A stretch of 64,000 nucleotides of DNA from an uncultured Acidobacteriota bacterium (GTDB lineage: Bacteria > Acidobacteriota > Thermoanaerobaculia > Thermoanaerobaculales > Sulfomarinibacteraceae), in assembly GCA_963753035.1 (NCBI GenBank), contig CAVWAW010000026.1:2838-66837 (forward strand). The letters run 5' to 3'. This document shows, in pieces, positions 10,830 through 64,000 of this stretch. Made by a program: the position numbers and the translations under genes. Every line of letters begins with the position of its first letter. Position 1 is the stretch's first letter. The notes under the pieces are model-generated. The model saw nothing but the letters and a program-made list of their open reading frames with translations. It did no database searches and was not told where the DNA came from.

Positions 10830-10835
10830 CAGTTC

Positions 10836-13762: not shown

Positions 13763-13789
13763 TTTGTTTGGGGTTGATTCCGTTGTCGA

Positions 13790-20721: not shown

Positions 20722-20810
20722 CCCGCACCTGCCGCTGGTGTTAAGATGCCACTCCGGATCTGCACCTGGAACCCGGGCGTTCACAGGTGCGTATATTTAT
20801 GGGGGGCGAT

Positions 20811-35700: not shown

Positions 35701-37925
35701 GTTCTCGACACCGTCCAGTCGAGCTCGAACGTGTGTTCGAGCACGTCGAGGTTCTCGGTGATCCAGTGGCCGACGGCCTCCGTCGGCCGGACCCAGAGGG
35801 AGTAGTTCGAGGCGCCGGGGTCGGACCACCTCAGAGTCACCGCGCCGGTGTCGGGGTTGATCTCGGGTGGCGCCAGGATGGGCGCCTCGACCTCCTCGCA
35901 CGGATCTGCGACCTCGACCACCGCGGACACGGCATCGACGCCATCCGGACCGGTGACCGTCAGCTCCACGGTGTATCGGCTCTCGGCAGAGAACACGTGA
36001 TCCTCCGTCGGCCCATCACCGCCGGTCCCGTCCCCGAAGCTCCATTGGTACCCGTCCACCTCACCGAGGCTCCGGTCGAGGAAACGCACCGACTCTCCGG
36101 GACTGGGCTCGACCGGCCGCCAGGTAAAAGCGGCATCCGGCGCCGAACCTGTTGTCGATCCGCCCTCGCGGGAGATCAGCCCGTCGCGACCGACCACGAT
36201 CAATCGCCCCTCGGGCTCGACCAGGTCGATGAGGTCGTGTCCGGGTGGAACGATCTCCATCTCCCACGCCAGCCCGTCGGCGCTGGTCATCAGCACCCCG
36301 CCGGCGCCCACCGCTGCGAAGCCACCTGCCACCGCCCGCACCGATTGCAGGGCGCGGCTTGTGCCGGACGCGACCGTCTGCCAGTTCACCCCGTTGGTGC
36401 CTGTCAGAATGGTCCCTGCGTTTCCCACGGCCACGAACCGTCCTCCGGCCCACGCCACCGACCACAGGTCGACCGAGGTCGGTGGGGCGATCCGGGTCCA
36501 TACGGCGCCATCGTCACTCCACGCCATCTGCCCGTCGATGCCGACCACCACGAGGCGGCCATCGCCCGTCGCCAGGTCAGCCATCCGGCGCGCCTGCCAT
36601 GGGAGCTCGCGGAAGATCCAGGTCCGGCCGTCGGCGCTGGAGCCAAGATCGGAGTCTGCGAGGACCAACCACCGGGATCCGTCCCACTCGACGGCGTTGA
36701 CCCATCCCGCCACGTCCCACACCCGTTCCCAGGCCAGACCGTCCGGGCTCAGAAAGAGGTCGGTCCTGCCACCGAAGCAATGATCAAACTCGGTTGCGGC
36801 GACGAGAAAGCCACCGTTCCCGGCGCCCACGGTTCCAACGAGCCGGTCACTGATCTCGGCGCGATCCGCCTCGCGCCAGGCCACGCCGTCGGTCGAGGTC
36901 AGAACGGATCCGTATCCGTAGGGATAGACGCCGCAGTAATCGTTGGAGAGCTCGATGATGCGACCGCCGCCAACCACCACACCCGAAGGACCCGCGGCTG
37001 CAGAAACCAGGTCAACCCCACCGAATCCGGTGAGCCCACGCCAGACGAACGTCTCACCGGCCTCGGAGATCAATCCCCCTCTGCCGACACCGATCACCCT
37101 CTCGCCAGCGCAGGCGAGATCGCGAAGTCCAGGTCCGTAGGAATCGCTCCACAGACGGTTCCAGTGGATCCCGTCACGGCTCGACGCGCCGCTGAAAGCA
37201 TCGGACGTCACGACGAATCGTCCCCAACAGTGGGTCACGGCAGTGGCGGCGTCCATGAGATCAGCCCGTGTCCAGGACATCCCGTCGGAGCTGACCCAAC
37301 CATCACCTTCGGCGTCCCAGACCACGACGAGGCCGGCGCCGGTATCCACAACGGTTGGGCGCGAGAAGCTCGCCGCCGGCTCCGGCATCCAGTTCACGCC
37401 GTCAGCGCTCCACAGCACCCGGCCGCCGTCACCCACCACCAACCACCGATCGGTGAGCCACACCACTCCGCGGAGAGTCCCGCCGCCGAATTCGGTCACC
37501 GTCCACGCGAGCCCGGCCCGGCTGAACGCCACCGTGCCGCCGGTTCCGACAGCGACGAAGCCCAACGGTCCCGCCGCAACCGCCACCAGGTCGGCCCCGG
37601 ACAAGGGCGGCTGCGACCGCCAGAGACCTGGGGCCTCGCTCGCCATCACGGTCCCGTCCTCGCCCACCGCCACGGCAAGGTCACTGCTGCCCGCGACCGC
37701 TACAAGATCGACGTCGGTACCGCTGGAGACAATCGACCACGGGTCGTCCGCCTGCCGCTCGAGGATTGTCCCGAATTCGCCGACCGCAATCTGGCGACCA
37801 TTCGCGAGGACCGCAACGCCCTCGAGATCGGCCTGGGTGGGCAGAGGGTTGACGGCCTGCCAGTCGTTCGCAGCGGCGGCGGTCGTCAGCAGGACCACCG
37901 CGCAAGTAACGAGCATTCGCGTCAT
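32736..37925 (-). CDS. giant secreted protein (1,729 aa): two Ycf48/BNR-like beta-propeller regions, a PKD domain and two copies of an uncharacterised ~215-aa module
   Basis: Intact ORF. Signal peptide MTRMLVTCAVVLLTTAAAA. There are >=14 blades with [ST]-x-DG-x-x-W (SADGVNW, SSDGMSW, STDGVAW...). PKD: YQWSFGDGTGGDGPTEDHVFSAESRYTVELTVTG. The modules end ...AYASVVDNGTGDP and ...AWASLVDNGTDDP. Confidence 0.85.
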   Translation of the reverse strand: MTRMLVTCAVVLLTTAAAANDWQAVNPLPTQADLEGVAVLANGRQIAVGEFGTILERQADDPWSIVSSGTDVDLVAVAGSSDLAVAVGEDGTVMASEAPGLWRSQPPLSGADLVAVAAGPLGFVAVGTGGTVAFSRAGLAWTVTEFGGGTLRGVVWLTDRWLVVGDGGRVLWSADGVNWMPEPAASFSRPTVVDTGAGLVVVWDAEGDGWVSSDGMSWTRADLMDAATAVTHCWGRFVVTSDAFSGASSRDGIHWNRLWSDSYGPGLRDLACAGERVIGVGRGGLISEAGETFVWRGLTGFGGVDLVSAAAGPSGVVVGGGRIIELSNDYCGVYPYGYGSVLTSTDGVAWREADRAEISDRLVGTVGAGNGGFLVAATEFDHCFGGRTDLFLSPDGLAWERVWDVAGWVNAVEWDGSRWLVLADSDLGSSADGRTWIFRELPWQARRMADLATGDGRLVVVGIDGQMAWSDDGAVWTRIAPPTSVDLWSVAWAGGRFVAVGNAGTILTGTNGVNWQTVASGTSRALQSVRAVAGGFAAVGAGGVLMTSADGLAWEMEIVPPGHDLIDLVEPEGRLIVVGRDGLISREGGSTTGSAPDAAFTWRPVEPSPGESVRFLDRSLGEVDGYQWSFGDGTGGDGPTEDHVFSAESRYTVELTVTGPDGVDAVSAVVEVADPCEEVEAPILAPPEINPDTGAVTLRWSDPGASNYSLWVRPTEAVGHWITENLDVLEHTFELDWTVSRTWLADVRARRACDSGSISSPRSNPQLIVLEPRADAPGATRLLIPAAAHAPGIGETQWSTDLVVFNSNPQAATVGVGLSGGDPAALSLHLRAGETTVVEDVVGELTPNDAVGSLVLSSDLPLVASSRTVTTTAAGGFGQLIPAYEPATLTGGTKRLLGLVRDNAFRTNLGFASASTAPVTARTSFISSDGGFIGELLDLLPPGGFLQRTDVLGGNAPLDGAHASINLDPTVAAVAAYASVVDNGTGDPVYRAPARPPGGWRLSIGPRLSVVGIAGEIVPCGEGAVAAGRGGMALTENLRQWLPRSFDGEVRFRFLAGNGDQVISYGPTRLFVSDDCGETWTRRSVEGAESIWDAAWSGVRWVAVAGGATVMTSRDGLNWQTHNGVLPGTLIRIVRGESEVAAVGGEFFARSADGVEWQSSQVATGAYLDGVAAGPVGYVVASPQYGTRGLWFSSDGEAWTKVSDVYGSPVWTGDRFLATTVENDWDNEAGFSESFDGITWAPVAVPGFPQTDAVLRAFGDGRVAILGWSGELGWLVNGNDDLLVPAVASLPGVESARWRSELILTETAGTASTCRIDLLERGRENSNPTSVVRELDPGATLVIADAVGDLFGIERAGAMRIACSPATVAGASRTFTTVDAGSYGQGVAVGGLEEAIHSFEAAVLSALIESPDPDAGRRSNLGLVSLCRQPMTVDVDFLGTGGEVIVSRSYDLRPFEAMQRNRVLAGVGADDGEPVTLALTSATPGCVFAAWASLVDNGTDDPVFLQALPVGSSEVIARPGGLELDNGQAVVIDRLTEAEGTATLPPGELDLAVDGSGALGGADRPLQVLCLWRRIDGQVRAEVLRTGETATGILGSEPFWCVVPDLGTCADNTGWVRLELSGPSGNRVFELDNEANCVVVSTLAGARPLDGDGGGNWNCVTSGDLGTADFPPQALVIYNDIRGASPVQRAVVMRHGSSLEDVSDAGPAYVVVVDWDTAEDNRGWTWIER

Positions 37926-38060
37926 CACGGACCTTCCTGTCCCCGGAAGCACCTGCCCATAGTACGGATGCACCCGGGGAGACGTCTACCGCCAACGGCC
38001 ACCCCTGATCAACACCATTCGGCACGTCCGACGCGCCGCCGCAATTCGTCCGACGAATTG

Positions 38061-39592: not shown

Positions 39593-42264
39593 ATGACGGA
39601 AAGAAAGAAGCTCTACCTCATCGACGGGCCGAACATCGCGTTCCGGGCGTTCTTCGCCATCGGCGGGATGACCAACTCCGCCGGGCTGCCCACCAACGCC
39701 CTCTTCGGCTTCACCAACATGCTGCTCAAGCTCATCCGCGACGAGCGCCCCGACTACCTGGCCATCACCTGGGATCCCAAGGGCGGCTCGTTCCGCGAGC
39801 GTGAGTTCCCCGACTACAAGGGAACCCGACCCGATATGCCGGAAGCCCTCCGCACCCAGATGCCCCACTTCTCACGCGTCGCCGAGGCCTTCGACATGCC
39901 CTTCCTCTGCATCGACGACTTCGAGGCCGACGATGTCATGGGCACCCTCGCCCGCCGTCACGAAGACGAACTCGACGTCGTTCTCGTCACCTCGGACAAG
40001 GACCTCATGCAGCTCGTCACCGACAACGTCACCCTCCTCGACACCATGAAGGACCGCCGGATCTCGTTTCCTGAGGTCGAGGAGAAATTCGGCTGCCCAC
40101 CCGAGCTCGTCCCCGACGCCCTCGGGATCTGGGGCGACTCGTCGGACAACATCCCCGGTGTCAAGGGCATCGGAGAAAAGGGCGCCAAGGCGCTCCTGGC
40201 CAAATGGAAGGGCCTCGACGAGATCTACGCCCACATCGACGAGGTGACACCGCCCGGCGCCAAGGCCAAGCTCGAACGCGACCGTGAGCAGGCCTTCCTC
40301 TCGCGCGACCTCGCCACCATCCGCGACGACGCCCCGGTCGAGGTCGCCCTCGATCAACTCGCCCTGGTCTGGCCGCCCGACGAGGACCGGGCACGCGATC
40401 TCTTCACCGAGTTCGAGTTCCGCGGTCTGCTGCGCGAGTTCGGCGGTGAGATGACCAGCATCGACCGCAGCAAGTACCGGCTCGTCACCGACGACGACGA
40501 GTTGGCGGAGCTGGTGACGTTTCTCGAGGGCGTGCCGCGCTTCGCCCTCGACACCGAGACCACATCGCTGGATTCCATGCGCGCCGAACTCGTCGGGCTC
40601 TCGTTCTGCGCCGATGACGAGGTCGCCTGGTATGTTCCCGTGGCCCACGCGGTGCTCGAGCCCCAGCTCGACTGGGCGACGGTGCGACCCGCCCTCGCTG
40701 CGCGTCCTCACCGATCCCGCCAAGGGCAAGACCGGTCAGAACCTCAAGTACGACCTCGAGGTCCTCGCCAACCACGGGGTCGAGCTCGCCGGAATCGACG
40801 GCGACACGCTGCTCGCCGACTATCTCCTCAACCCCGACCGCCGTTCACACAAGCTCGACGATCTCGCGCTGGTCTATCTCAACCACAAGATGATCTCCTT
40901 CGCCGACGCGGTCGGCAAGGGCGGGACCTTCGACTCAGGTGCCCCTGGACACGGCCCGCGACTACGCCGCCGAGGATGCCCACGTCACCTGGCTGCTCGA
41001 CAACAAGCTCCATCGAGCGGCTCGAGGAAGAGGACCTCGACGAGCTCTACCGCGACCTCGAGCTGCCCCTGATGCCGGTGCTGGCGCGGATGGAGATGAA
41101 CGGCATCGCGGTGGATGTCGCCGCCCTCGCCGAGCTCTCGATCGAGCTCGAGACCGGGATCGCCGAAGCCGAGACAACGGTGCTTCGAGGCCGCCGGACG
41201 CGAGTTCAACATCGGTTCGGTCAAACAGCTCCGGGAGGTTCTCTTCGAGGAGCTGGGGCTGCCGGTGATCAAGACGACCAAGACCGGGGCCTCGACCAAC
41301 GAACAGGTCCTCACCGAGCTGGCCGATCCAGCACCCGCTGCCCCGCGCCATCCTCGACTACCGGTCGCTGGTCAAGCTCAAGAACACCTATGTCGATCCC
41401 CTGCCCGAGCTCGTCCACCCCGAGACCGGCCGGATCCACACCTCGTACTCACAGACGACGGCCGCCACCGGGCGGCTGTCCTCCACCGATCCCAATCTGC
41501 AGAACATCCCGATCCGAACCCCCGAAGGACGGCGAATCCGGCGGGCCTTCGTCGCGCCCCCGGGACGGGTGCTCGTCGGCGCCGACTACTCGCAGGTCGA
41601 GCTGCGGATCCTCGCCCACCTCTGCGGCGGAATCGGCGGTTTCGCCGATGCCTTCGCCGCCGGCGCCGATGTCCACTCGGAGACCGCCGCGGGGCTCTTC
41701 GAGATCCCGCCGGAGGAGATCGACCGGCAGCAGCGGACCATCGCCAAGGCGGTCAACTTCGGCATCGTCTACGGTCAGAGCGCCTTCGGTCTCGTCCCAG
41801 CAGCTGCGGATTCCGCGCAGCGAGGCCAACACGCTACATCAAACGCTTCAAGGAGCGCTTCCCCGAGATCGAGGAGTACCGCGAACGAACCCTCGCCGGA
41901 GCGGCGGAGACCGGCTACGTGGAGACCCTCCTCGGTCGCAAACGACCGGTGCCCGATCTGAGATCGGGCAACTTCAACGCCCGCGCCGCCGCCGAGCGCG
42001 TCGCCATCAACACCCCGGTCCAGGGCTCGGCCGCCGATCTCATCAAGAAGGCCATGCTCACCGTCGATGCCCGACTCCGCGCCGAGTTCCCCGGCCAGCT
42101 GCATGCTGCTCCAGGTCCACGATGAACTGCTGCTCGAGGTCGACGAGGATCAGGCCGATGCCGTCGGCGAGATGGTCCGCGAGGAGATGATCGGCGCCAT
42201 CGAACTCTCGGTCCCGCTCGTCGTCGATCTCGGAGTCGGCAAGAACTGGGATGAGGCGCACTAG
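39593..42264 (+). CDS. polA: DNA polymerase I; reading frame broken 8 times as sequenced
   Basis: 5'-nuclease LYLIDGPNIAFRAFFA, GIWGDSSDNIPGVKGIGEKGA. 3'-5' exo ALDTETTSL, GQNLKYD. Polymerase motifs DYSQVELRILAH (A), RTIAKAVNFGIVYGQSAFGL (B), LQVHDELLLEV (C). The pieces cycle through frames 2-0-1-2-0-1-2-0-1. Confidence 0.9.
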
Positions 42265-42265
42265 G

Positions 42266-42475
42266 ATAATTATGAATTTTGAATGATGAATTTTGAATTG
42301 CGGACCTCGTCCTCGAGCGCCAATGGACTATCGTACGAGGTGTGGACTGCTCGAGCAGCTCTGAAGGGCAGGCTGGAAGCCCATCCCACAATTCATCACA
42401 TCGTTTTTTGAAGAACCCGTGGTCGCTGCGATGGTGCGATGTAATTCAAAATTCATAATTCATAATTCATAATTA
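42266..42475. repeat. heptad-armed inverted-repeat element, copy B
   Basis: Left arm ATAATTATGAATTTTGAATGATGAATTTTGAATT, right arm AATTCAAAATTCATAATTCATAATTCATAATTA. The core is homologous to copy A and ends GCTGCGATGGTGCGATGT. It fills the whole gap between the polA and NUDIX stops. Confidence 0.85.
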
Positions 42476-46153: not shown

Positions 46154-46285
46154 GGACGCCTCTTTCGGATTGCGGTACCGAACCCGTTTCCTTCCACGAT
46201 GTACCCGTGCGGTGCCAGGCAGCTCTACCACGCGATTTCGAGGATGAGAGGACGAGGCGCGTCCCAGAATAGTGTAAGAGACCCT

Positions 46286-46967
46286 CCAACGGGGTGCCGG
46301 GCATGGCTTTGTGCCGGAAGAACCTCGCGGCGACGCGTCCCGCCCCGCACAAGGTCCATGCCGGGCTCCCTCGGGGAGCGCGATGCGGTCTGTTCTCCCG
46401 GCTACGAAGCAGGCCGCCGGCGCGCCATCGGCGTGGTCGCAGCCCTCTCAATCAACCCACGCGCGACCACGCCGATGGTGCGACGCTGGGTCGCCGGGAC
46501 GCCAATGCGTCACAGCGGCCCAGAAGGCCGGTGTCGAAGGAAAGTCCCGCCACAGCAACCGGAAATCCCGCCAATCCCAAACTCTCCGCACTCTCTCGGA
46601 AACGCCCAACCAACTTCAACAATACTGACGGACAGGCTGGAAGCCCGCCCCCACAATATCCGCCCAACCTGGTGTGGAACCGACACCGAGGCCGACCAGG
46701 ACACGCGAAAAACCGCGCCCCAACGGGGTGCCGGGCATGGCTTTGTGCCGGAAGAACCTCGCGGCGACGCATCCCGCCCCGCACAAGGTCCATGCCGGGC
46801 TCCCTCGGGGAGCGCGATGCGGTCTGTTCTCCCGGCTACGAAGCAGGCCGCCGGCGCGCCATCGGCGTGGTCGCAGCCCTCTCAATCAACCCACGCGCGA
46901 CCACGCCGATGGTGCGACGCTGGGTCGCCGGGACGCCAATGCGTCACAGCGGCCCAGAAGGCCGGTG
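46286..46967. repeat. 1.6 tandem copies of a 433-bp non-coding unit (248-bp module X at 46286-46533 and 46719-46967; 185-bp module Y between)
   Basis: The two X copies differ at a single position that I could find (GCGTCC vs GCATCC). X contains a perfect 15-bp stem, CATCGGCGTGGTCGC ... GCGACCACGCCGATG. A diverged inverted copy lies at 63219-63467. Confidence 0.9.
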
Positions 46968-47026
46968 CTGAGGGCATGGTCCGCAACAACGGCAGAAACC
47001 TGGACAGGGGCCGTATCCGTTTCCAT

Positions 47027-53721: not shown

Positions 53722-53839
53722 GGGTCTCCCTCTCCGACCGGCGGCTCTATGGTCACAAACCGGGGCGAATCCCGATTCGACCCGGGACTCATTGTAGGCG
53801 CAACAACACCCGGCGTGCGAGGCTTCCCTCTTCGCTGAT

Positions 53840-56073
53840 ATGCTCCACCTCACGAGCCGTTCCGGAGGCCGCACATTGAAACTCACCCATCAACGACGGA
53901 AAATCACCATCGGACCAACCCGATTCGAGGCCTCCCGGACTGCCGACGGGGTCGCCGAACTCTGGGCGGACGACGACGACGCTCTCGCCTGCGCCCTCGG
54001 CGCCGCCCACGCCACCGACCGTCTGGTCCAGATGGTCATGGCCCGGATCGTCGGTCAGGGCCGGATCTCGGAGTGCCTCGCCGATGACGAAACGACCTTC
54101 GCCATCGATCTCTTCATGCGGCAGATGGGTTTTCGCCGCGAGGCGGACCGCGAGGTCGCGGATCTCGATCCGGAGGCGCGCCGTTTCGCCGAGGCCTATG
54201 CAGCCGGGGTCAACCACGTCATCGCAAACCGGCGGCGGCCGGTGGAGTTTGTCCTCGTCGGACACCGGCCCGCCGAGTGGACCCCGGCCGATACGCTCCT
54301 CACCATCAAACTCATGTCCTACCTCGGTCTCGCACAATCCCAGCAGGATGCGGAGAAGCTCATCATCCAGGCGATCCACGGCGGGACACCCATCGAGGCT
54401 CTCACCCGCCTGTTCAGCCCTCACCTCGACGGTCTCGATGACGAAACCGTCGATGCCATCCGCAACCTCGCCCACCTCGAACCCCTGCTACCCCCTGCCC
54501 TCCGGTTCCTACCCGGAGCGCCCAAAGTCGCGGCGAGCAACAACTGGGCGGTCAGCGGCGCCCGATCGGCATCGGGCAACCCCATCCAGTGCAATGACCC
54601 CCATCTCGAAATCAACCGCCTGCCTGCCATCTGGTACGAGGCGGTCATGCACACCGCCGACGACGATCGGGTCGGCGCCACCATGCCCGGAGTCCCGGGG
54701 ATGGTCATGGGCCGAACCCGGAACCTGTCGCTCGGATTCACCTACGGTTTCATGGACATGGCGGACTTTTTTGTCGAGGACTGCCAGAACGGGCGCTGCC
54801 GCCGTGGCGACGAATACCACGCACTCGACAGCCGGGCCGAGACCATTAGACGGAAAGAAGCACCCCGACGCGGAGATCACCATCCGCGAAAACGACCTGG
54901 GTGTTCTCGAGGCCGACCCTCTGCAGAGCGAACTCGCCGACGGGATCTATCTGACCCGGGCATGGTCGGGACACCGGGAGGGAACCGCCAGCTCTCTCGA
55001 CGCCATTCGGCGGGTTGTCCGATCGACCACCGTACCCGACGCGCAGGCCATCCTCCGCAAGGTTTCCATCTCGTGCAACTGGGTGCTCGCCGACCGCCTC
55101 GGCAATATCGGATACCAGCAGTCCGGGCTCCTTCCCGACCGCTGCCACTCCGGAGTCCATCCGGTCCCCGCCTGGCGGGGAGAAAACCACTGGCGGGGCC
55201 TGGTCGATCCGGATCGACTCCACTCGGAACTCAATCCGGCCGACGGCATCGTGGTCACGGCCAACAATGAAATCAACGCCCCCTCAGGCCCCATGGCCGT
55301 CAACCTGCCCATGGGCTCCTACCGCCACGATCGGATTCGAGCCCTGCTCGAAGCGAACAGCGAACACACCCCGGAGACCATGAAGGCCATCCAGCTCGAT
55401 CTCATGTCCCTTCAGGCCGAAGCGCTCATGGAGATCTGGCGCCCGCTGCTCCCGGACAGCCTGGCCGGGCGACTACTCGCGCGTTGGGACCTCCACTACG
55501 ATCTCGACTCACGCGGAGCGACCCTCTTCGAGGAGGCCTATCAACGGATTCTGCTCGAGGTCTGCGGCGAACGGATCTTCGGCCGAGACGTCTGGGACGC
55601 CCTGGTGGAAGAGACCGCCATCGTCGCCGACTACTATCACTTCTTCGACCGGATCCTGTTATCGGAAGATCCCTACTGGTGGGGCGAGGAGGGCCGCGAA
55701 GCGGTGCTGACGAGGATCCTCGGCGACCAGCTCACCCACCTCGATCTCTATCACGTGATGCCCTGGGGACGCCGCCGCCGGACGATGATGACCAATATCT
55801 TCTTCAACGGCAAACTGCCGCGAATGCTTGGCTTTGACCACGGACCCATCTCGATGCCGGGCAGCCGCGCCACCGTGATCCAGGGCGGCCTCTTCACCGC
55901 CCACGGCCGCGACCACCACCTTCGCTCCGTCCTGGCGGTTTATCACCGACATGGGCGCCGACACCGTGGAAACGGTGCTCGCGGGCGGTCCGTCGGGGAG
56001 CCGGTTCTCGAGCTGGTACACCACCGATGTCGAGCGCTGGTTGCTCGGGGAGTACAAGACACTCGAATTATGA
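53840..56073 (+). CDS. penicillin acylase family (Ntn-hydrolase, S45) protein, possibly an acyl-homoserine-lactone/beta-lactam acylase; 2 frame changes
   Basis: Self-processing site ...APKVAASNNWAVSGARSASGNPIQCNDPHL. NIGYQQSGLLP, ...IVVTANNEI. The tail ...SWYTTDVERWLLGEYKTLEL* is read after a shift near 55920. Confidence 0.8.
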
Positions 56074-56160
56074 ATGATGAATGATGAATTTCATCGCAGG
56101 TGCCTTTGGCTGCAGAGTTCTTAGTTTTTAGTTCTTAGTTTTTAATTCCATCGCAGCAGT
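56066..56160. repeat. heptad-repeat element, copy E (two different heptad blocks, each followed by CATCGCAG)
   Basis: AATTATGAA TGATGAA TGATGAA TTT-CATCGCAGG... then TTCTTAG TTTTTAG TTCTTAG TTTTTAA TT-CCATCGCAGCAG. The acylase stop TGA at 56071-56073 is the first rung. Confidence 0.75.
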
Positions 56161-56381: not shown

Positions 56382-56828
56382 TCAGTCGCCTGGCTTTTCC
56401 TTCTCGCCTACCCGCCGTCGTCCCATGCGAATGACGAACCAGCTCCCGATGACTCCGGCTGCGACGATGGTTGCGGCCAACGCCTGTTGCGGTTCGGGAG
56501 CAATCATGACCATCGTGGCGCTGGCTGCGATGGCGAGCCACATCACAACGAGGGTCCAGACCACCACCTTGCGCGGCATCTGGGCGCCCTGATCGAGATA
56601 GATGAGAAATGGCCGGAATAGCGGGATCCGAATCAGCCGTTCCTCGAGCCAGGGGCAACTTCGAGTGAAGCACCACGAGGCCCCGAGGAGGAAGATCGTG
56701 GTCGGCAAGCCCGGGAGAAACACCCCCACCGCTCCGATGCCGACCAGAGACACACCGCCAGCCACCAAAAACCACCGGTGGAGACGGCTGCGGACGGGAC
56801 GAACACCAGCTGGATCCGTTACTTCCAT
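56382..56828 (-). CDS. DUF454 (YbaN) family inner-membrane protein
   Basis: Intact. VGIGAVGVFLPGLPTTIFLLGASWCFTRSCPWLEERL is the hallmark N-terminal region of YbaN-like proteins. Confidence 0.8.
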   Translation of the reverse strand: MEVTDPAGVRPVRSRLHRWFLVAGGVSLVGIGAVGVFLPGLPTTIFLLGASWCFTRSCPWLEERLIRIPLFRPFLIYLDQGAQMPRKVVVWTLVVMWLAIAASATMVMIAPEPQQALAATIVAAGVIGSWFVIRMGRRRVGEKEKPGD

Positions 56829-57020
56829 TATCTCTTGGAGTTCAACGTCTCGGAAACCGGATCATTCCCCGATGGATTCTCGGGCCACCCCAAGCAGGAG
56901 CCTGAAGCCTCATGCCAAAATCTCCTTCATTGATGATTCGTGGTCTTTGTGCCGGCGAGACGCCGGCACTACAAATGGCGGAGATCCATTGCGGGAACGG
57001 GGTCTCGCCGACCTTCGGCG

Positions 57021-57788
57021 TCACGTCCTCAAATACGACGCTCCGTTGACATCGATAATCGCGCCAGTCGAAAACTCGGCGCCGTCGGAGGCGAGGAAGA
57101 TGACCGCCGCCGCGACCTCCTCGGGTTTGGCGATCCGGCCGAACGGGCTCTGGGTCGTGATGTCCGCCCACATGGGCGTGTCGTGATACCGCGCCGCCAT
57201 GTCGGTATCGACAAAGCCCGGCGCTACAACACCGACGGCGATCCCATGCGGCGCAAGCCGTTTGGCCAGACTCTGGCTCATGGCGTTGAGTCCGGCCTTG
57301 CTGGCTCCATAGGCCGGGCCGTTGGGTTCACCGCGGAACGAACCGCGCGACGAGACGTTGACGATTCGGCCGCCGCCGCGTTCGATCATGTGGCGCGCGG
57401 CGCAGTAACTGATATTCGCTGGGCCCAGTAGATTCGCCTCGAGCACCCTTTTCCACGCGTCCTGCCACTCGTCGTAGTCGACGTCCTCGAGGACGTGGTC
57501 GACCCAGATGCCGGCGTTGTTCACTACGATGTCGAGTCCGCCCAGGGCCTCGATGGCCGCCGCCACCAGATCTTCCACGGCCACGGGATCAGTCACATCC
57601 GCCTGCAGCATGATGTGGCCGTCGCCAGGGAGTTCGGCAAGGGTCGCCTCGGCCGCACTCGTGTTGCCGCGGTAGTTGATCGCCACCCGAGCCCCGCGTT
57701 CGGCGAAACCCACGGCGCAGGCCCGTCCGATCCCTCGCGACCCACCGGTGACGAGAACGTTCTTTCCCTTGAAATCCATCTTTGACAT
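57021..57788 (-). CDS. SDR-family oxidoreductase (3-oxoacyl-ACP reductase-like)
   Basis: Intact 255 aa. VLVTGGSRGIGRA (TGxxxGxG), NNAG, catalytic YGASKAGL (YxxxK). Confidence 0.9.
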   Translation of the reverse strand: MSKMDFKGKNVLVTGGSRGIGRACAVGFAERGARVAINYRGNTSAAEATLAELPGDGHIMLQADVTDPVAVEDLVAAAIEALGGLDIVVNNAGIWVDHVLEDVDYDEWQDAWKRVLEANLLGPANISYCAARHMIERGGGRIVNVSSRGSFRGEPNGPAYGASKAGLNAMSQSLAKRLAPHGIAVGVVAPGFVDTDMAARYHDTPMWADITTQSPFGRIAKPEEVAAAVIFLASDGAEFSTGAIIDVNGASYLRT

Positions 57789-58048
57789 CCTCCATGACCT
57801 TGATCCCGCTCGATTCTACACGGCGTTGAATCTCCCCCGAGAACACGACAGAGACTTCAGGCGTCCGTCGTGCGGACCCTGTGGCCAAAAATGGAATTCA
57901 CAGGCATTTCGTGATAGAACACCCCCCTCGGTTATACCCAACAAAGAGGGATGCGAGGCCGCAGGCCTTCACTGAGAATAAACACCCGTGAGTCACAGTT
58001 CTTAATTCTGAACACGCGCGCGCACCACTTGACCTGAGGGGCGATGAG

Positions 58049-59182
58049 ATGGACTACACGAATCCGCAACAGAACGAGGGGCCGGGCATCGACCTTCGTA
58101 GCGGAGAAAGCCACAGTCTGAAGCACGACGATTCGTGGCACGAGAACCTGCTTTCAGGTGTTTCGCGGACCTTTGCTCTGACCATTCCCCAACTCCCGAG
58201 CGGTCTGCGGGAGGCGGTCACCAACGCCTACCTCCTGTGCCGAATCGCCGATACCATCGAGGACGATCCGCTCCTCGATCCCGACACCAAGGATCGATTC
58301 CACAGCGCGTTCCTCGAGGCGGTCACGACCGGTCGCGGAGCAGATGATTTCGCGGCCGAACTCGCGCCGCTTCTGGCGCCGAGCACATTGGCGGCTGAAG
58401 TCGAGCTGATCGAAGAAAGCCCGCGGGTACTGCAGGTCACCCGAGGGATGCATCCAAGGCAACGCATCGCCATCCAACGATGCCTCGACACCATGAGTCA
58501 CGGGATGGCCAGCTTCGCACGGAGCAGAACCCGCGATGGGCTGGCCGACGTGGTCGAGTTCGAACGCTACTGCTATTTCGTAGCAGGGGTCGTCGGGGAG
58601 ATGCTCACCGAGCTCTTCTGCGACTACTCACCCGAGATCGACGCCATTCGCGATCAGCTCACGCCAAGGGCTGTCGGCTTCGGACTCGGGCTCCAGATGA
58701 CCAACATCCTCAAGGACATCTGGGATGACCTCGAGCACGACACCTGCTGGCTCCCACGCGACGTTTTCGAGCGCCACGGATACGATCTCACAACACTGGC
58801 GCCGAACCACAACGGAAACGGCCCGGCGTTCGCAGCATCGATGCACGAACTCATCGACATCGCCCAGGGTCATCTGCGCGAAGCTCTGGCCTACACGCTG
58901 GCGATGCCTCGCAACGAAACCGGAATCCGGCGCTTCCTGATCTGGGCCGTTCTGCTCGCAGTTTCCACCCTTGGAAAGATTTCGGATCATCCGCTGTTTA
59001 CCTCTGGTACGCAGGTCAAGGTTTCTCGACCCCGCGTCGCCGCCATCATCGCCGGCTCGAGCTCGCTCATACGCAGCAATGAAGGACTGAAAAAGCTGTT
59101 CAACACCGCCGCCCGGAGGCTCCCTCTGGATAGCGCCAACCAATTTTCCGCCGTGATCCGAAAGGAATCTGCAAACCCTTGA
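58049..59182 (+). CDS. sqs: squalene synthase (farnesyl-diphosphate farnesyltransferase; squalene/phytoene synthase family)
   Basis: Intact 377 aa. GVSRTFALTIPQLPSGLREAVTNAYLLCRIADTIEDD parallels the SRSF...YLVLRALDTLEDD region of eukaryote-type SQS. The second Asp-rich region is NILKDIWDD. Confidence 0.8.
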   Translation: MDYTNPQQNEGPGIDLRSGESHSLKHDDSWHENLLSGVSRTFALTIPQLPSGLREAVTNAYLLCRIADTIEDDPLLDPDTKDRFHSAFLEAVTTGRGADDFAAELAPLLAPSTLAAEVELIEESPRVLQVTRGMHPRQRIAIQRCLDTMSHGMASFARSRTRDGLADVVEFERYCYFVAGVVGEMLTELFCDYSPEIDAIRDQLTPRAVGFGLGLQMTNILKDIWDDLEHDTCWLPRDVFERHGYDLTTLAPNHNGNGPAFAASMHELIDIAQGHLREALAYTLAMPRNETGIRRFLIWAVLLAVSTLGKISDHPLFTSGTQVKVSRPRVAAIIAGSSSLIRSNEGLKKLFNTAARRLPLDSANQFSAVIRKESANP

Positions 59183-61416
59183 CCAGTTCCGCCTTCTCAT
59201 CGTTCCACAAGCTATCGGTCCAGGAACGCCTCCGGACCGTCCGTGACCGGGGCCTGCTCTCCTCGCAGGAGTGTCGGGCTCTGGGTAACGGCGAAACCCT
59301 CCTCGACATCAACGACGCCGACAATATGATCGAGAACGTCATTGGCGTCATGGGCATCCCCGTCGGTCTCGGGCTCAACTTCCTCATCAACGGCAAGGAC
59401 CACGTCGTGCCGCTCGCGGTGGAGGAGCCCTCCATCGTCGCCGCCCTGAGCTTCGCCGCCAAGACCGCCCGGCTGTCGGGCGGATTTACCGCATCGAGCT
59501 CGGATCCTATCCTCATCGGCCAGATCCAGCTGGTGGATGTCCCCCACCCGGTCAAGGCTCGGCATATCCTCGAAAGCCGCAAGGAGGAAGTCATCAACCT
59601 CGCCAACGGCCTCCACCCGAGGATGGTCGCGCGGGGCGGCGGCGCCGTCGATATCGAGGTGATCCTCCATCCCGCCACCCCCGACACATCCGAGATGCTG
59701 GTGGTCCACCTCCTCGTGGATACCCGAGACGCCATGGGCGCCAACCTGGTGAACACCATGTGCGAAGGGGTCGCCTCGTTTATCGAGAGCCTCACCGGCG
59801 GCAAGGTTTTTCTCCGCATCCTTTCGAATCTCGCTGATCGCTCCCTGGTCCGCGCCTCAGTGAGAATACCGGCCGAGAATCTGAAGACAAAAGGCCACGA
59901 TGGCGAGCAGGTCCGCGACGGCATCATCATCGCGAGTCAGTTTGCAATGGTCGACCCCTACCGCGCGGCAACCCACAACAAGGGCATCATGAACGGGATC
60001 GATGCGGTGGCCCTGGCCACCGGAAACGATTGGCGCGCAGTCGAAGCCGGCGCCCATGCCTTTGCCGCTCGCGGCACCCGTTACACCTCGCTCTCGCGCT
60101 GGACCAAGGGCGACGACGGGGCCCTCGTCGGCGAGATCGAGCTGCCGCTGCGGGTCGGCATCATCGGTGGACCGCTGAGCGCCAACCCTTCGGTCAGTAT
60201 GAATCTCCGGCTTGTCCGGGTCGACTCCTCACGTGAACTCGCAGAAGTGATGGCCGCCGTCGGGCTGGCGCAAAACTTCTCGGCGCTGCGAGCCCTCGTC
60301 ACCGATGGGATCCAACGCGGACACATGACCCTCCACGCCCGGAGCGTCGCGACCGCCGCCGGCGCTACACCCGAGATCTTCGACTCGGTGGTCGACAGGC
60401 TCGTCGCATCGGGCGAGATCAAGATCTGGAAGGCCAAAGAACTCGTCACCGAGGTCAGGGACCAGATGGGCCAAGGCATGGCCCCGGAAGAGCGCGAAGA
60501 GATGTCCGCCGGCAACGGCAAGATCATCCTCTTCGGCGAACACGCCGTGGTCTACGGCAGCCGCGCCATCGCCGCCCCGATCCCCCTCGCGGTACGGGCG
60601 CGGGTGGTCGACGAGAATGATGGTGTCTGGCTGGTGATTCCCCGCTGGGGCGTCGAACAGCGCCTCCGTCTGAATCCGGAGAAACAGATGTCGTTCGAGG
60701 TTCCGGCGGCGTTGATTCTCCGCAAACTCGGCCTCACCGACCGTTCGATGCGGATCGAGGTCTTCTCCGAGATCCCGCGCGCCATGGGTCTCGGCGGTTC
60801 CGCCGCGGTGGCGGTGGCCATCATCCGGGCCATCGACCGCCACTTCGATCTCAAGCTTACCGACGATCAGGTCAACGCCCTCGCCTTTGAGTGTGAGTGC
60901 GTCGCCCACGGCACCCCGTCGGGGATCGACAATACCGTTGCCACCTTTGGCAAACCTCTGGTCTACCGCAAGGCCGACCCGCCGGTCATCCGACCGCTTG
61001 AACTCTCAAAGCCCATCACCTTCGTGGTCGGGATGACCGGGGTCGAAGGGCTCACCGCCAAGATGGTCGCCCGGGTGCGCAACGGCCGCGACCGAAACCC
61101 GGATGTCTACGACACCGTCTTCCGCGGAATCGACGCCGTGACCCTTCAGGCCCTCGAGGCGCTCAAGCAACACGATCTCGAGCGACTCGGCGAGCTCATG
61201 AATATCTGTCAGGGGCTGCTCAACGGGCTCCAGGTATCGAGCTGGGAGCTCGAAGAGCTCATCCAGGTCTCGCGCGAAAACGGCGCGCTGGGGGCCAAGC
61301 TCACCGGCGGCGGCGGCGGCGGATCCATGATCGCCCTCTGCCCGGACAACGCCGACGCGGTCATCGAAGCAATCCAGGGAGCCGGCTATCAGGCCATGGA
61401 GGTCCGCATTGGCTGA
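59179..61416 (+). CDS. bifunctional class II HMG-CoA reductase :: mevalonate kinase fusion protein
   Basis: Intact 745 aa. The N-terminal ~430 aa match class II HMGR (VEEPSIVAA, DAMGANLVNTM, RAATHNKGIMNGIDAVALATGNDWRAVEAGAHA, GIQRGHMTLHAR). The linker is QMGQGMAPEEREEMS. The C-terminal GHMP kinase has GKIILFGEHAVVYG, PRAMGLGGSAAVAVA, KLTGGGGGGSMIAL. Confidence 0.9.
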   Translation: MTSSAFSSFHKLSVQERLRTVRDRGLLSSQECRALGNGETLLDINDADNMIENVIGVMGIPVGLGLNFLINGKDHVVPLAVEEPSIVAALSFAAKTARLSGGFTASSSDPILIGQIQLVDVPHPVKARHILESRKEEVINLANGLHPRMVARGGGAVDIEVILHPATPDTSEMLVVHLLVDTRDAMGANLVNTMCEGVASFIESLTGGKVFLRILSNLADRSLVRASVRIPAENLKTKGHDGEQVRDGIIIASQFAMVDPYRAATHNKGIMNGIDAVALATGNDWRAVEAGAHAFAARGTRYTSLSRWTKGDDGALVGEIELPLRVGIIGGPLSANPSVSMNLRLVRVDSSRELAEVMAAVGLAQNFSALRALVTDGIQRGHMTLHARSVATAAGATPEIFDSVVDRLVASGEIKIWKAKELVTEVRDQMGQGMAPEEREEMSAGNGKIILFGEHAVVYGSRAIAAPIPLAVRARVVDENDGVWLVIPRWGVEQRLRLNPEKQMSFEVPAALILRKLGLTDRSMRIEVFSEIPRAMGLGGSAAVAVAIIRAIDRHFDLKLTDDQVNALAFECECVAHGTPSGIDNTVATFGKPLVYRKADPPVIRPLELSKPITFVVGMTGVEGLTAKMVARVRNGRDRNPDVYDTVFRGIDAVTLQALEALKQHDLERLGELMNICQGLLNGLQVSSWELEELIQVSRENGALGAKLTGGGGGGSMIALCPDNADAVIEAIQGAGYQAMEVRIG

Positions 61417-61987
61417 TGTTGCGAACCACCCAACCAACGAGGTGGTTTCGAGTGAGGAAGAGCCGCTCATCCTTGTTGACGAATCCGATCGCGAGATCGG
61501 CCATCTCAGCAAGGGCGAGTGCCACGATGGCGAAGGCGTACTCCACCGCGCGTTCTCGCTTTTCATTTTCAACTCGGATGGCGAACTTCTGCTCCAGAAG
61601 CGCAGCGCCGAGAAACGCCTCTGGCCGATGTTCTGGTCGAACTCGTGCTGCAGCCACCCTCGCCGTGGCGAGTCCATGAACGTGGCCACCCGGCGCCGAC
61701 TGGAGCAGGAACTCGGAATGGCCGCCGATTTTCACCACCTCTTCACGTTCCAGTACCAGGCGCCGTACCTCGACCTCGGATCTGAGCACGAAATCTGTTG
61801 GGTCTATGTCGGGCTCTGTGATGATCCGCCCCGACCCAACTCAACCGAAATTTCCGCGATCCGATGGATCACGCCGGATGAACTCGACCGAGAGTTCGTC
61901 GATCGCCCCGAGGCCTTCACGCCATGGTTCGCCCAGGAATGGCCGCGGGTCCGCGATGTTTTTCACCGGGTACTGCGTTTGACCTGA
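61409..61987 (+). CDS. idi: isopentenyl-diphosphate delta-isomerase, type 1 (Nudix fold)
   Basis: Intact. HRAFSLFIFNSDGELLLQKRSAEKRLWPMFWSNSCCSHPRRGES...RRRLEQELGM. The TTG start overlaps the upstream stop. Confidence 0.85.
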   Translation: MADVANHPTNEVVSSEEEPLILVDESDREIGHLSKGECHDGEGVLHRAFSLFIFNSDGELLLQKRSAEKRLWPMFWSNSCCSHPRRGESMNVATRRRLEQELGMAADFHHLFTFQYQAPYLDLGSEHEICWVYVGLCDDPPRPNSTEISAIRWITPDELDREFVDRPEAFTPWFAQEWPRVRDVFHRVLRLT

Positions 61988-61995
61988 GGAGACCC

Positions 61996-63099
61996 ATGGG
62001 CATCCCACTGATTCAACAGCTCCGCATCGGCGGATACCTGATCAAACAGAAACTGAAGGGCCGCGATCGGTACCCGTTGGCGATGATGCTCGAGCCGCTT
62101 TTCCAGTGCAACCTCGCCTGCTCGGGCTGCGGCAAGATCGACCATCCCGACGAGATCCTCAAAAAGCGCCTCAGCGTTGAACAGGCCCTCGCCGCGGTTG
62201 ACGAGTGCGGCGCGCCGGTGGTATCGATTCCCGGCGGGGAGCCGCTTCTGCACGATGAGATGCCCGAGATCGTCAAGGGACTTGTGGCACGCAAGAAATT
62301 TGTTTATCTCTGCACCAACGCGCTGCTCCTCGCGCGCAAGATGGACGACTACGAGCCCTCCCCCTACCTCAACTTCTCGGTCCACCTCGATGGCAATCGG
62401 GAGCGCCACGACGCATCGGTCTGCCGCGACGGAGTCTACGATCGGGCGGTCGCCGCCATCAAGCAGGCCCTCGAACGCGGATTCCGGGTGACGATTAACT
62501 GCACCCTCTTCAACGGCGAGGACCCCGACGAGGTGGCGCTGTTCTTCGACGATGTCATGGAGATGGGGATCGAGGCCATCACGATCTCACCGGGCTACAG
62601 CTACAGCCGCGCGCCGCGCCAGGACGTCTTCATGAACCGGCGCGAGAGCAAACAGCTTTTCCGCGATATCTTCAAGCGTGGCGCCGAACGCAAGAAGAAA
62701 TGGGCCTTCAATCAGTCATCGCTTTTTCTCGATTTCCTCGCCGGCAACCAGGGTTACCAGTGCACGCCGTGGTCGAACCCGACCTACAACATCTTCGGCT
62801 GGCAGAAACCGTGTTATCTGCTCGTCGATGAGGGCTATGCCGAGACCTTTGCCGAGCTGATGGAAGAGACCGAGTGGGAGCGCTACGGAACCGGCCGCAA
62901 CCCCAAGTGCGACAACTGCATGGCCCACTGTGGCTTCGAGGGCACCGCGGTCGACGACACCTTCGCCCATCCGCTCAAAGCCCTCAAGGTCGCAATCATG
63001 GGGCCGGACACCGACAAACCGATGGTCGAAGATCCGCCGATCCAGTACCTGGACGATCACCGTGAGTCCAAGAAACTGCCGGTCAAACAGGCGGGGTGA
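61996..63099 (+). CDS. hpnH: adenosyl-hopene transferase HpnH (hopanoid side-chain radical SAM enzyme)
   Basis: Intact. YPLAMMLEPLFQCNLACSGCGKIDHP (CxxxCxxC), VSIPGGEPLLH, FVYLCTNALLL, SSLFLDFLAGNQGYQCTPW, GWQKPCYLL. There is a near-colinear match to HpnH sequences recalled from hopanoid producers. Confidence 0.9.
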   Translation: MGIPLIQQLRIGGYLIKQKLKGRDRYPLAMMLEPLFQCNLACSGCGKIDHPDEILKKRLSVEQALAAVDECGAPVVSIPGGEPLLHDEMPEIVKGLVARKKFVYLCTNALLLARKMDDYEPSPYLNFSVHLDGNRERHDASVCRDGVYDRAVAAIKQALERGFRVTINCTLFNGEDPDEVALFFDDVMEMGIEAITISPGYSYSRAPRQDVFMNRRESKQLFRDIFKRGAERKKKWAFNQSSLFLDFLAGNQGYQCTPWSNPTYNIFGWQKPCYLLVDEGYAETFAELMEETEWERYGTGRNPKCDNCMAHCGFEGTAVDDTFAHPLKALKVAIMGPDTDKPMVEDPPIQYLDDHRESKKLPVKQAG

Positions 63100-63218
63100 C
63101 GTCGATACTGGATACTGTCCCGGACGCTGAATCCTGTCGTTGGTTCCTGCCGCTGTTCCGGTCGCTGGTTTCTGACGCTGTCCCTGCCCCGGTCGCTGTC
63201 CCGGAATAGGTTCCCTCA

Positions 63219-63467
63219 GGCCCGGCCTTCTGGGCCGCTGTGACGCTCGGGCGTCACAGCGGCCCAGCGTCGCACCATCGGCGTGGTCGCGCGTTGGTTG
63301 CTTGGGAGGGCTGCGACCCCGCCGATGATGCGCCGGCGGCCTGCCTCGTTGCCGGGAGAACAGACCGCATCGCGCTCCCCGGGGGAGCCCGGCAGCGCCA
63401 TTGTGCGGGGCGCGGGGCGGAGCCGGGTGGTGGTTCCAGCACAATAGCGTGCCCGGCACCCCGTTGG
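63219..63467. repeat. inverted, diverged third copy of 248-bp module X (see 46286-46967)
   Basis: The reverse complement aligns with module X end to end (roughly 85% by eye) and includes the CATCGGCGTGGTCGC...GCGACC(C)CGCCGATG stem. It is followed (63468-63650) by sequence resembling module Y and a REP at 63541-63572. Confidence 0.8.
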
Positions 63468-63716
63468 GGCGGGGTTTTCCGCTTGTCCTGAATCGGTTGG
63501 GTGGCTCGTTGTTTACCCCGGATTTCGGGGGCTCTGATGGGCCGGCGGGACGCCGGCCCTACAATCATCGCAATCAGGGTTTCAAATCGTTTGGGCGGAC
63601 ATTGTGGGGGCGGGGTTTTCCGCTCGCACGGGAAGGAATCGGGTCGGCAGGGGCAGCGAGCAGCGGCGGTGAGGCTGTTCCGGACGCTGATTCCTGCCCC
63701 TGCCGCGGATGCTGAC

Positions 63717-64000
63717 CTATGACTCGTCCGGCTCTAAAAGCGTCTGCTTCTTCACCTGGCTTCTGGTGAAGCCAGGCGCGAGGGCCTGGGCGATATAGCC
63801 CGACGCGATCCACTTCGGATACGTGAGTTCGCGTTTGCCGCGGGCCAACGCGTCCATGATCGCCTCGACGAGGCCTTCCGGCTCGGCCATCTGCCGGTGG
63901 GCCACCGCCGGCAGCCTCGCCAACGCATCTTCGTCGAAGAACGGGGTCCTGATGGCGCCGGGGCAGACGGTGAGTACGTGGACACCGGCGTCCTCGATCT
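63717..64000 (-). CDS. SDR-family oxidoreductase, C-terminal part (gene continues beyond window end)
   Basis: The reverse-frame reading ...HVLTVCPGAIRTPFFDEDALARLPAVAHRQMAEPEGLVEAIMDALARGKRELTYP... is typical of the C-terminal third of classical SDRs. The stop is at 63717-63719. Confidence 0.6.
   Translation of the reverse strand, partial: IEDAGVHVLTVCPGAIRTPFFDEDALARLPAVAHRQMAEPEGLVEAIMDALARGKRELTYPKWIASGYIAQALAPGFTRSQVKKQTLLEPDES

Follow-up and report, generated by a model that had tools for sequence, protein, structure and literature searches.

A coupled operon of mevalonate-pathway genes, a squalene synthase-like gene and hpnH in an uncultured acidobacterium, probably one arm of a hopanoid cluster

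Hopanoids are the classic lipids of the methylerythritol phosphate (MEP) pathway, a route that was discovered through them. Genes for precursor supply sometimes lie inside the hpn clusters, namely ispH or dxs in Alphaproteobacteria and extra dxs and ispG in Streptomyces coelicolor. In Streptomyces, complete six-gene mevalonate (MVA) clusters also flank terpenoid gene clusters, where they serve secondary metabolites in hosts that have the MEP pathway (summarized in PMC13001223). Here we analyze a stretch of 64,000 nucleotides from an uncultured acidobacterium (the window in the following), in which positions 58049–63099 hold four intact plus-strand genes in the order sqs, HMGR::MVK, idi, hpnH. 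These genes would encode a squalene synthase (SQS)-like protein, a fusion of HMG-CoA reductase (HMGR) with mevalonate kinase (MVK), isopentenyl-diphosphate isomerase (IDI) and adenosylhopane synthase (HpnH). We consider it likely that the window contains the plus-strand arm of a hopanoid (bacteriohopanepolyol, BHP) cluster that is fed by mevalonate through this translationally coupled operon. As in the Streptomyces clusters, a pathway-linked MVA copy stands beside genes that consume isopentenyl diphosphate (IPP); the differences are that only HMGR, MVK and IDI are linked in the window and that the product would be a membrane lipid.

In surveys of hopanoid producers, essentially every strain has MEP genes, and squalene is usually formed through hpnCDE (PMC5462960, PMC12583986). 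This agrees with the preliminary description of this DNA, according to which such bacteria are generally supplied by MEP. The published exception is Mor1. This acidobacterium of subdivision 22 (SD22), an associate of Moorea producens, is reported to have no MEP genes, most MVA genes, shc (the gene of squalene–hopene cyclase, SHC), hpnH and an SQS-like gene, and is said to make BHPs probably "in a rather different way" (Sinninghe Damsté et al. 2017, PMC5462960). Mor1 and the present case thus share the phylum Acidobacteriota, MVA genes, hpnH and, as the relatives suggest for the present case, shc; in both, one SQS-like gene replaces hpnCDE. Mor1, however, belongs to SD22/Polarisedimenticolia, whereas the window belongs to SD23/Thermoanaerobaculia, and its report, as far as the available text goes, is one of gene presence and absence, with no coupled sqs-HMGR::MVK-idi-hpnH operon and no mention of the fusion or of paralogues. 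Given this precedent, and given that Thermoanaerobaculum aquaticum, a cultured SD23 member, has MEP genes and no hopanoid genes (PMC5462960), the window extends the gene content of the Mor1 type to SD23.

The canonical hpn clusters of Zymomonas, Rhodopseudomonas, Bradyrhizobium and the SD1/SD3 Acidobacteria likewise combine shc, hpnG and hpnH with squalene-forming enzymes, but they use the three-step HpnC/D/E route and MEP, whereas the window has a one-step SQS-type enzyme and MVA genes. The canonical bacterial MVA cluster, which is transmitted as a syntenic set, also keeps class II HMGR, MVK and IDI together (Hoshino & Gaucher 2018, PMC6107057). In the window, in contrast, sqs occupies the usual place of mevalonate diphosphate decarboxylase (MDD) and phosphomevalonate kinase (PMK), neither of which adjoins the fusion, HMGR and MVK form one polypeptide, and hpnH follows idi. 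A further set of comparable clusters is found in metagenome-assembled genomes (MAGs) of Rhodanobacteraceae, Nevskia, Wenzhouxiangellaceae and other Proteobacteria, which have the fusion (58–69% identity) with IDI, HpnH, SQS, SHC and HpnG. Most of these, unlike the window, keep MDD-PMK directly upstream of the fusion and have SHC-HpnG on the same strand; they are without the adenine-deaminase-like gene and the 498-aa gene of the acidobacterial cluster described below. The literature, of which the coverage was incomplete, gave no account of the coupled operon, of the HMGR::MVK fusion, of its paralogous copies or of the proteobacterial co-cluster of MVA and hopanoid genes. The gene content itself (MVA, SQS, shc and hpnH with no MEP) has been known from Mor1 since 2017, and the layout recurs in many uncultured bacteria.

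The operon and its products

The operon comprises the following features, the products being named after their best-matching families.

58049..59182, plus strand: sqs, 377 aa, SQS/PSY-family protein resembling one-step squalene synthase
59179..61416, plus strand: HMGR::MVK fusion gene, class II HMGR at the N-terminus and MVK at the C-terminus, 745 aa, TTG start
59218..60339, plus strand: HMGR domain, aa 14–387 (Pfam PF00368, 370 bits, profile positions 2–368 of 368)
60517..61338, plus strand: MVK domain, aa 447–720 (TIGR00549, 260.2 bits, cutoff 163.05)
61409..61987, plus strand: idi, type 1 isopentenyl-diphosphate isomerase, 192 aa, TTG start
61996..63099, plus strand: hpnH, radical SAM adenosylhopane synthase, 367 aa from ATG
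57789..58048, no strand: divergent intergenic region between the upstream minus-strand SDR gene and sqs, the expected site of the operon promoter

The sqs/fusion junction reads ...aac cct TGA (cccTTGAcc), where the TTG of the fusion gene begins at 59179 and the two genes overlap by the four nucleotides TTGA (59179–59182). At the fusion/idi junction, TTGGCTGA, read as a TTG GCT GA (aTTGGCTGAtg), the overlap amounts to 8 nt (61409–61416). The TGA of idi (61985–61987) is followed by an 8-nt spacer, GGAGACCC, which contains GGAG, and by the ATG of hpnH at 61996, the mechanical open reading frame (ORF) of hpnH opening upstream of this ATG, at 61924. The start codons and the Shine-Dalgarno sequences are kept in up to seven related loci. 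Those of the fusion and of hpnH, gGAAAGGAA upstream of a TTG/GTG start and GAGGAG upstream of ATG, are kept in relatives, and that of idi, GGAGG located 7 nt upstream of its TTG, is kept together with the TTG in five of them. A public protein collection holds the same four products (377/745/192/367 aa) together on one NCBI/ENA contig of 223,843 nt, which indicates that an independent gene caller picked the same starts, the unusual TTG codons included. The marks of translational coupling are thus found at this locus, namely genes on the same strand, overlaps or a short spacer with a Shine-Dalgarno sequence, and conservation of these junctions among relatives.

The gene order and the junctions given in the preliminary description (the TTGA overlap, the fusion/idi overlap and the 8-nt gap before hpnH) are read directly from the sequence, with ORF positions that are exact and products that are identified by profiles. 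Its central statement, that squalene synthase and HpnH share a coupled operon with committed enzymes of the MVA pathway, is also borne out, as the identities pass their cutoffs, except for SQS, and the junctions are conserved.

The four genes would share one transcript. A Shine-Dalgarno-like GAGGGG at 58036–58041 precedes sqs and is kept in the closest relative (L002, see below). The consensus scan of the operon yields 3 terminators, where 4.7 are expected by chance, with no internal one above chance. The sole promoter-like site found, at 59303–59330 in the fusion gene, corresponds to 1 site found versus 1.2 expected by chance.

The sqs product matches the Pfam family SQS_PSY with 191 bits. 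Its best NCBIfam model is squal_synth (TIGR01559), with 120.6 bits versus a cutoff of 286.75, followed by HpnD (81 bits), CrtB (51 bits) and HpnC (46 bits), and it lies below every NCBIfam equivalog cutoff. Compared to solved structures, the best matches are eukaryotic SQS, with those of T. cruzi (aa 30–351) and human (aa 119–331) at E values of 1e-19 to 1e-18; CrtM (E 1e-7 to 1e-12) and phytoene synthase match only the central aa 170–283. The similarity to the solved SQS includes the C-terminal region that is absent from CrtM, HpnC and HpnD. The motifs DTIED68, QMTNI216 and DIWDD223, with two Asp-rich motifs among them, are present, as is VKVSR323 in the C-terminal region. We regard the product as SQS-like, apparently nearer to the one-step SQS than to any other family, while its score places it outside formal membership.

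The HMGR half of the fusion scores 408.6 bits with TIGR00532 (cutoff 259.95) and has the motifs VEEPS81, HNKG266, GNDW282 and GHMTLH381. The residues E83, K268, D284 and H382 do not vary among 16 homologues, both paralogue types included; the catalytic Glu/Lys/Asp/His of P. mevalonii HMGR are E83, K267, D283 and H381. The MVK half has the GHMP motifs GEHAVVYG453, GLGGSAA537, GIDN582 and KLTGGGGGG707. All of these catalytic and GHMP motifs are invariant across the 16 homologues, and the linker of ~30–40 aa between the two halves (about aa 410–445) is poorly conserved in the alignment. IDI scores 166.1 bits with NF002995 (cutoff 127) and 154.4 bits with TIGR02150 (cutoff 105.8), and has the active-site Cys/Glu motifs WSNSCCSHP76 and EHE126. 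HpnH matches TIGR03470 over its full length (profile positions 1–318 of 318) with 550.6 bits versus a cutoff of 225.05, and is composed of Radical_SAM and DUF3463 (PF11946, 202.7 bits) domains with CNLACSGC at aa 38. The enzyme activities of the four products are predicted from these matches.

Relatives and the opposite arm of the cluster

The fusion has at least 120 full-length homologues at 70–95% identity, which are metagenomic. The few that are named carry the labels Thermoanaerobaculales or Ca. Sulfomarinibacteraceae (Acidobacteriota), and the only close GTDB species representative among the matches listed is a Ca. Sulfomarinibacteraceae MAG, with a fusion of 84% identity. Judged from these affinities, the organism is a Thermoanaerobaculia acidobacterium near Ca. 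Sulfomarinibacteraceae.

The same four-gene operon is present in three independent assemblies, L002 (fusion 95% identity), L088 and L084 (84%). The nucleotide identity between L002 and the window is 89% over 57909–63117 (blastn). L002 and L088 have the same junction overlaps as the window, and in L084 idi and hpnH overlap by 1 nt. Within 10 kb of the operon, the three loci contain neither another SQS_PSY gene nor an amine oxidase of the HpnE type, which fits a one-step SQS, as does the length of the protein (377 aa). As a separate observation, SQS changes much more rapidly than the other products of the operon. The identity to the window is 87% for SQS in L002, compared to 95% for the fusion, 92% for IDI and 96% for HpnH, and 64–65% in L084, compared to 84%, 75% and 83%, respectively; in L088, SQS has 71% identity and the fusion falls in the same 90%-identity cluster as that of the window.

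Beyond hpnH, the minus strand of all three relatives carries genes for an SDR, an Amidohydro_1/Adenine_deam_C protein, a PNP_UDP_1 protein of the HpnG type and a SQHop_cyclase (SHC), the HpnG-type gene adjoining that of SHC. A ~500-aa (498 aa) protein without Pfam match precedes HpnG in L002 and L084 and is not seen in L088. The distance from hpnH to SHC is 5.5–6.2 kb in L002 and L084; in L088, SHC is fragmented and lies ~4 kb past hpnH. Both SHC and HpnG are within 7.5 kb in all three. The corresponding features are

63712..64000, minus strand: 3' part of an SDR gene, with which the opposite arm begins in the relatives; the window ends inside this gene
outside the window, minus strand, L002 10830-14044, L084 16178-19395 and L088 16572-18305: region of the Amidohydro_1/Adenine_deam_C and ~500-aa proteins

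The last 289 nt of the window have 91% identity to aa 176–267 of the L002 SDR by tblastn, and 86% by blastn. Since they encode the SDR of the relatives, the window cuts the hopanoid cluster in half. SHC very probably lies a few kilobases past position 64000, as the gene order of the relatives suggests; neither SHC nor HpnG has a tblastn match in the window. The Amidohydro_1/Adenine_deam_C protein (566–576 aa) and the ~500-aa protein that overlaps it are located between the SDR and HpnG-SHC. The former is a candidate adenosylhopane deaminase that would yield inosylhopane; inosylhopanes are known lipids, and no gene for them is named in the source paper. The combined evidence from the window and its relatives supports a hopanoid cluster that is built on MVA genes and a one-step SQS-type enzyme instead of MEP genes and hpnCDE.

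The SQS score below the equivalog cutoff could also be explained by an enzyme that feeds C30 carotenoids or free squalene, with HpnH acting on a different substrate. Bacteria are reported to make C30 carotenoids by a route through squalene (PMC9907078), and in L052 and L062 (Pseudomonadales/Rariloculaceae) an SQS gene lies near the fusion, whereas SHC and HpnH are not found within 10 kb. However, the full-length match of HpnH to its equivalog model at 550 bits, the occurrence of SHC and HpnG close to the operon in all three relatives, and the fact that no gene table contains a CrtN-type desaturase make this explanation very improbable for the present locus. The SQS homologues of the other two loci (L052 12302–13300, minus strand; L062 6908–7915, plus strand; 47–49% identity) stand beside an MVA cluster, and this arrangement hints at squalene for a non-hopanoid use there.

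A scan of species representatives (one genome per species) returned at least 600 stretches with the fusion, distributed over Gammaproteobacteria, Calditrichota, Acidobacteriota, Actinomycetota, Myxococcota and other groups, and 80 loci were kept for gene-order counts. The order MDD-PMK-fusion is found in ~60 of the 80, mostly continued by IDI, and fixes a biosynthetic role despite the "degradative" label of the profile. In 18 of the 80, mostly gammaproteobacterial MAGs, the fusion lies less than 10 kb from HpnH, SHC or HpnG, which makes the linkage of MVA and hopanoid genes a recurrent pattern across phyla. The identical order SQS-fusion-IDI-HpnH occurs in L005, and the Rhodanobacteraceae MAGs have SQS-SHC-HpnG-x-MDD-PMK-fusion-IDI-x-HpnH-GT2, parts of which are seen in MAGs labelled Nevskia, Wenzhouxiangellaceae and Rhodospirillaceae. 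A simple neighbor-joining tree groups all hopanoid-linked fusions in the same part as the acidobacterial clade, a placement that was not bootstrapped. One Rhodanobacteraceae cluster, L015, contains two plus-strand ORFs without Pfam match, possibly not genes, at 6510–7691 (393 aa, between HpnG and MDD) and 12787–14646 (619 aa, between IDI and HpnH).

The label just mentioned belongs to the best NCBIfam model of HMGR, "hydroxymethylglutaryl-CoA reductase, degradative", and raises the alternative that the enzyme is an NAD-dependent oxidizer of mevalonate, as in Pseudomonas mevalonii. The stand-alone plasmid homologues, which adjoin TRAP transporters and Atu genes, would fit such a role. Here, however, HMGR is covalently fused to MVK and followed by IDI, MDD and PMK precede the fusion in most genomes, and the operon has no HMG-CoA lyase or transporter. 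The plasmid search returned stand-alone HMGRs, none covering the MVK half, and no plasmid with the fusion, and thus gives no evidence of plasmid carriage. The context, i.e., the fusion to MVK and the neighboring MDD, PMK and IDI, argues for the biosynthetic direction, and we give the catabolic one a negligible probability.

Source of the isoprenoid precursors

In the proposed mechanism, a single transcript starting in the divergent region 57789–58048 would encode SQS, HMGR::MVK, IDI and HpnH, whose translation would be coupled by the 4-nt and 8-nt overlaps and the 8-nt spacer with GGAG. The fusion protein would convert HMG-CoA into mevalonate and further into mevalonate-5-phosphate, PMK and MDD, encoded elsewhere in the genome, would complete the synthesis of IPP, IDI would provide dimethylallyl diphosphate (DMAPP), and an FPP synthase encoded elsewhere would form farnesyl diphosphate (FPP). 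SQS would then combine two FPP into squalene as one enzyme, SHC of the opposite arm, just past the window, would cyclize squalene to diploptene, HpnH would add the 5'-deoxyadenosyl side chain, and HpnG would remove adenine. Because the MVA genes share one operon with sqs and hpnH, the hopanoid lipids are probably fed by the mevalonate pathway.

A number of results weigh against this proposal. MDD and PMK have no tblastn match in the window, HMG-CoA synthase (HMGS) and FPP synthase are not among the window ORFs scanned, and none of the best 120 MDD homologues is on the window's own contig. A sigma-70 consensus scan finds no promoter in 57789–58048 and nothing above chance across the region. To these are added the SQS score below its cutoff, the MEP genes and the lack of hopanoid genes reported for T. 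aquaticum, and the relative L001, which has fusion-idi without hopanoid genes, so that the MVA pair is not intrinsically tied to hopanoids.

That HMGS, PMK, the decarboxylase and SHC lie outside the window had already been stated in the preliminary description, and the searches above agree. HMGS is likewise found in none of the relatives' gene tables. A FabH-like ORF at 20745–21827 was considered as HMGS and rejected, since it scores 438 bits with the 3-oxoacyl-ACP synthase III model PRK09258 versus 39–63 bits with the HMGS models. MEP enzymes are also not among the window ORFs scanned, and no MEP gene is seen in any fetched locus.

MDD homologues at 70–94% identity that are labelled Acidobacteriota are abundant. 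The sister-genome contig_52573 (237 kb), which carries the hopanoid operon of L084, has a second fusion ~100 kb away on the same contig (P0111, 71% identity to the window fusion; L085), preceded by MDD and a PMK-type GHMP kinase. For Ca. Sulfomarinibacter MAGs, RAST annotations exist for MDD, PMK, HMGR, MVK, IDI and SHC (PMC8528874 Supp. Table 8), the main text of that paper, in which Ca. Sulfomarinibacter is named, making no mention of hopanoids or isoprenoids. The preliminary description had proposed that a complete MEP pathway with no other MVA genes would point to a different role of HMGR; at the level of the family, other MVA genes do exist, as seen from the sister genome and from these annotations. 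We infer that this genome itself has MDD, PMK and HMGS, and that MVA, not MEP, is its source of IPP.

The nearest relatives bear on how far the supply is dedicated to hopanoids. L001 (fusion 90% identity, the closest after L002) has fusion-idi at the same locus without sqs, hpnH and shc. A search of its intergenic region for a remnant of sqs gives only a weak match, ~30 nt with the Shine-Dalgarno sequence of the fusion (75%, E 0.08). L087 has fusion-IDI alone, and L086 (fusion 80% identity) the canonical MDD-PMK-fusion-IDI. The divergent genes upstream of the operon are

56382..57788, minus strand: DUF454 (56382–56828) and SDR (57021–57788), assigned by Pfam, upstream neighbors divergent from the operon

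Their synteny is kept in L001, L002 and L088, i.e., in relatives with and without the hopanoid genes, and they are therefore probably outside the pathway. What is conserved at the core of this locus is fusion-idi; the hopanoid genes form an accessory layer around it, which some close relatives have and others lack. The main rival explanation follows from this, namely that fusion-idi is a general, housekeeping MVA module around which hopanoid genes were inserted or lost, the coupling being a by-product of compact packing. It is in line with L001, which keeps the same DUF454-SDR upstream, with L087 and L086, and with the adjacency of fusion and IDI, which holds generally across phyla whether hopanoid genes are nearby or not. 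On the other hand, four assemblies at 84–95% identity keep both the 4-nt overlap of sqs with the fusion gene and the close spacing of idi and hpnH, and MVA and hopanoid genes co-cluster in gammaproteobacterial MAGs as well. The MDD-PMK-linked fusion of the sister genome also counts against it, as the hopanoid-linked copy is not the only one. In view of these points, we consider a mere housekeeping module rather unlikely.

Two HMGR::MVK fusions per genome, in different contexts, are seen twice, as the hopanoid operon and the MDD-PMK copy of L084/L085 and as fusion-idi and a lone fusion gene in L001/L003. The lone gene of L003 is next to Rieske and acyl-CoA metabolism genes, on the same 225-kb contig as L001. 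In a neighbor-joining tree with 100 bootstrap replicates, the acidobacterial fusions, including the P0111 group, form one clade with 100% support, from which it follows that the paralogues arose inside the lineage. The second, MDD-PMK-linked copy argues for some division of labor between the fusions, although it is no proof of it.

The paralogues also hint at specialization, and they could be accommodated by a scheme in which a full MEP pathway serves the essential isoprenoids and MVA is an extra supply for triterpenoids, as in Streptomyces strains. T. aquaticum and the SD23 MAG RBG_13_68_16 have MEP genes (PMC5462960), and both pathways occur in ~2.4% of surveyed bacterial species (PMC13001223). 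The scheme is opposed by the window and the fetched loci, where no MEP gene is seen, and by Mor1, which is reported to be without MEP (PMC5462960). The "unique" lists of PMC8528874 Supp. Table 8 also name no MEP enzymes, which is uninformative if both taxa share or lack MEP. Such an auxiliary supply is possible, but we judge it doubtful, and supply from mevalonate alone remains our preferred explanation.

Other window features and significance

The preliminary description had further presented the operon as an intact island within a contig full of frameshifts, which is half right. Frameshifts do occur, as polA (~39700–42300, plus strand) is split over ~6 frame changes and penicillin amidase (53798–56084, plus strand) has one frameshift near 54868. 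Long intact genes, including a 5.2-kb ORF, are however also present at 14–38 kb, and the intactness of the operon carries no biological message. The frameshifts are most probably assembly indel errors of the long-read type rather than decay, because the essential polA is broken. The alternative that genes are truly decaying while selection preserves the operon was considered and rejected, given the ~6 hits in polA and the similarly fragmented SHC of L088, a related long-read assembly. The minus-strand ORF at 32736–37985 is intact, with 1,750 aa, and its sole recognizable domain is a single PKD. The G+C content rises from ~0.56 (1–14000) to 0.60–0.68 (14001–64000), with the step at ~14 kb. All ORFs of the low-GC part are short, and its genes include those for polysaccharide export/deacetylase and AAA_22 proteins.

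The space after hpnH is occupied by a repeat that occurs three times in the window.

63200..63480, minus strand: structured repeat of ~250 nt, directly after hpnH, between the convergent hpnH and SDR genes
46270-46560 and 46680-46980, plus strand: the other window copies of this repeat

By blastn and alignment, this intergenic repeat is also found at L001 5580–5830, L002 290–550 and L002 9650–9920. RNAalifold predicts several long hairpins, with 74 pairs, 14 of them with compensatory changes, and −112 kcal/mol. The only Rfam match, to the REP-derived naRNA4, is below threshold (28 bits vs 59.5). The repeat looks like an element of the lineage of the repetitive extragenic palindromic (REP) or miniature inverted-repeat transposable element (MITE) type, and the copy after hpnH may act as a terminator or insulator.

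As for the meaning of these results, an organism that uses MVA is expected to feed all of its isoprenoids from it, which tempers the significance, as do the 2017 precedent and the commonness of the layout. If the family makes hopanoids from mevalonate, the compact sqs-HMGR::MVK-idi unit with its natural bifunctional enzyme would be a ready part for triterpenoid engineering. The cluster is also found in MAGs placed in Nevskia, Rhodanobacter and Dokdonella, genera that have cultured members, so that labelling could test the MVA origin.

A more far-reaching version of the proposal is that the sqs-linked HMGR::MVK-idi is a lineage-specific paralogue that has turned into a dedicated, separately regulated hopanoid supply in an abundant, MEP-less, probably largely anaerobic family of sediment acidobacteria, which would be an overlooked source of MVA-derived sedimentary hopanoids formed without oxygen, and in which the adenine-deaminase-like and 498-aa genes would add side-chain chemistry, e.g., from adenosylhopane to inosylhopane. 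We regard this version as speculative and give it little weight. Its anaerobic element is drawn from relatives, which suggest that the family is probably largely anaerobic. If hopanoids in this family are derived from mevalonate, the carbon-isotope and position-specific isotope reading of sedimentary hopanes would have to include a second biosynthetic end-member. The Thermoanaerobaculia, a prominent group in marine sediments (PMC8528874), would then be added to the few candidate sources of hopanoids made by anaerobes.

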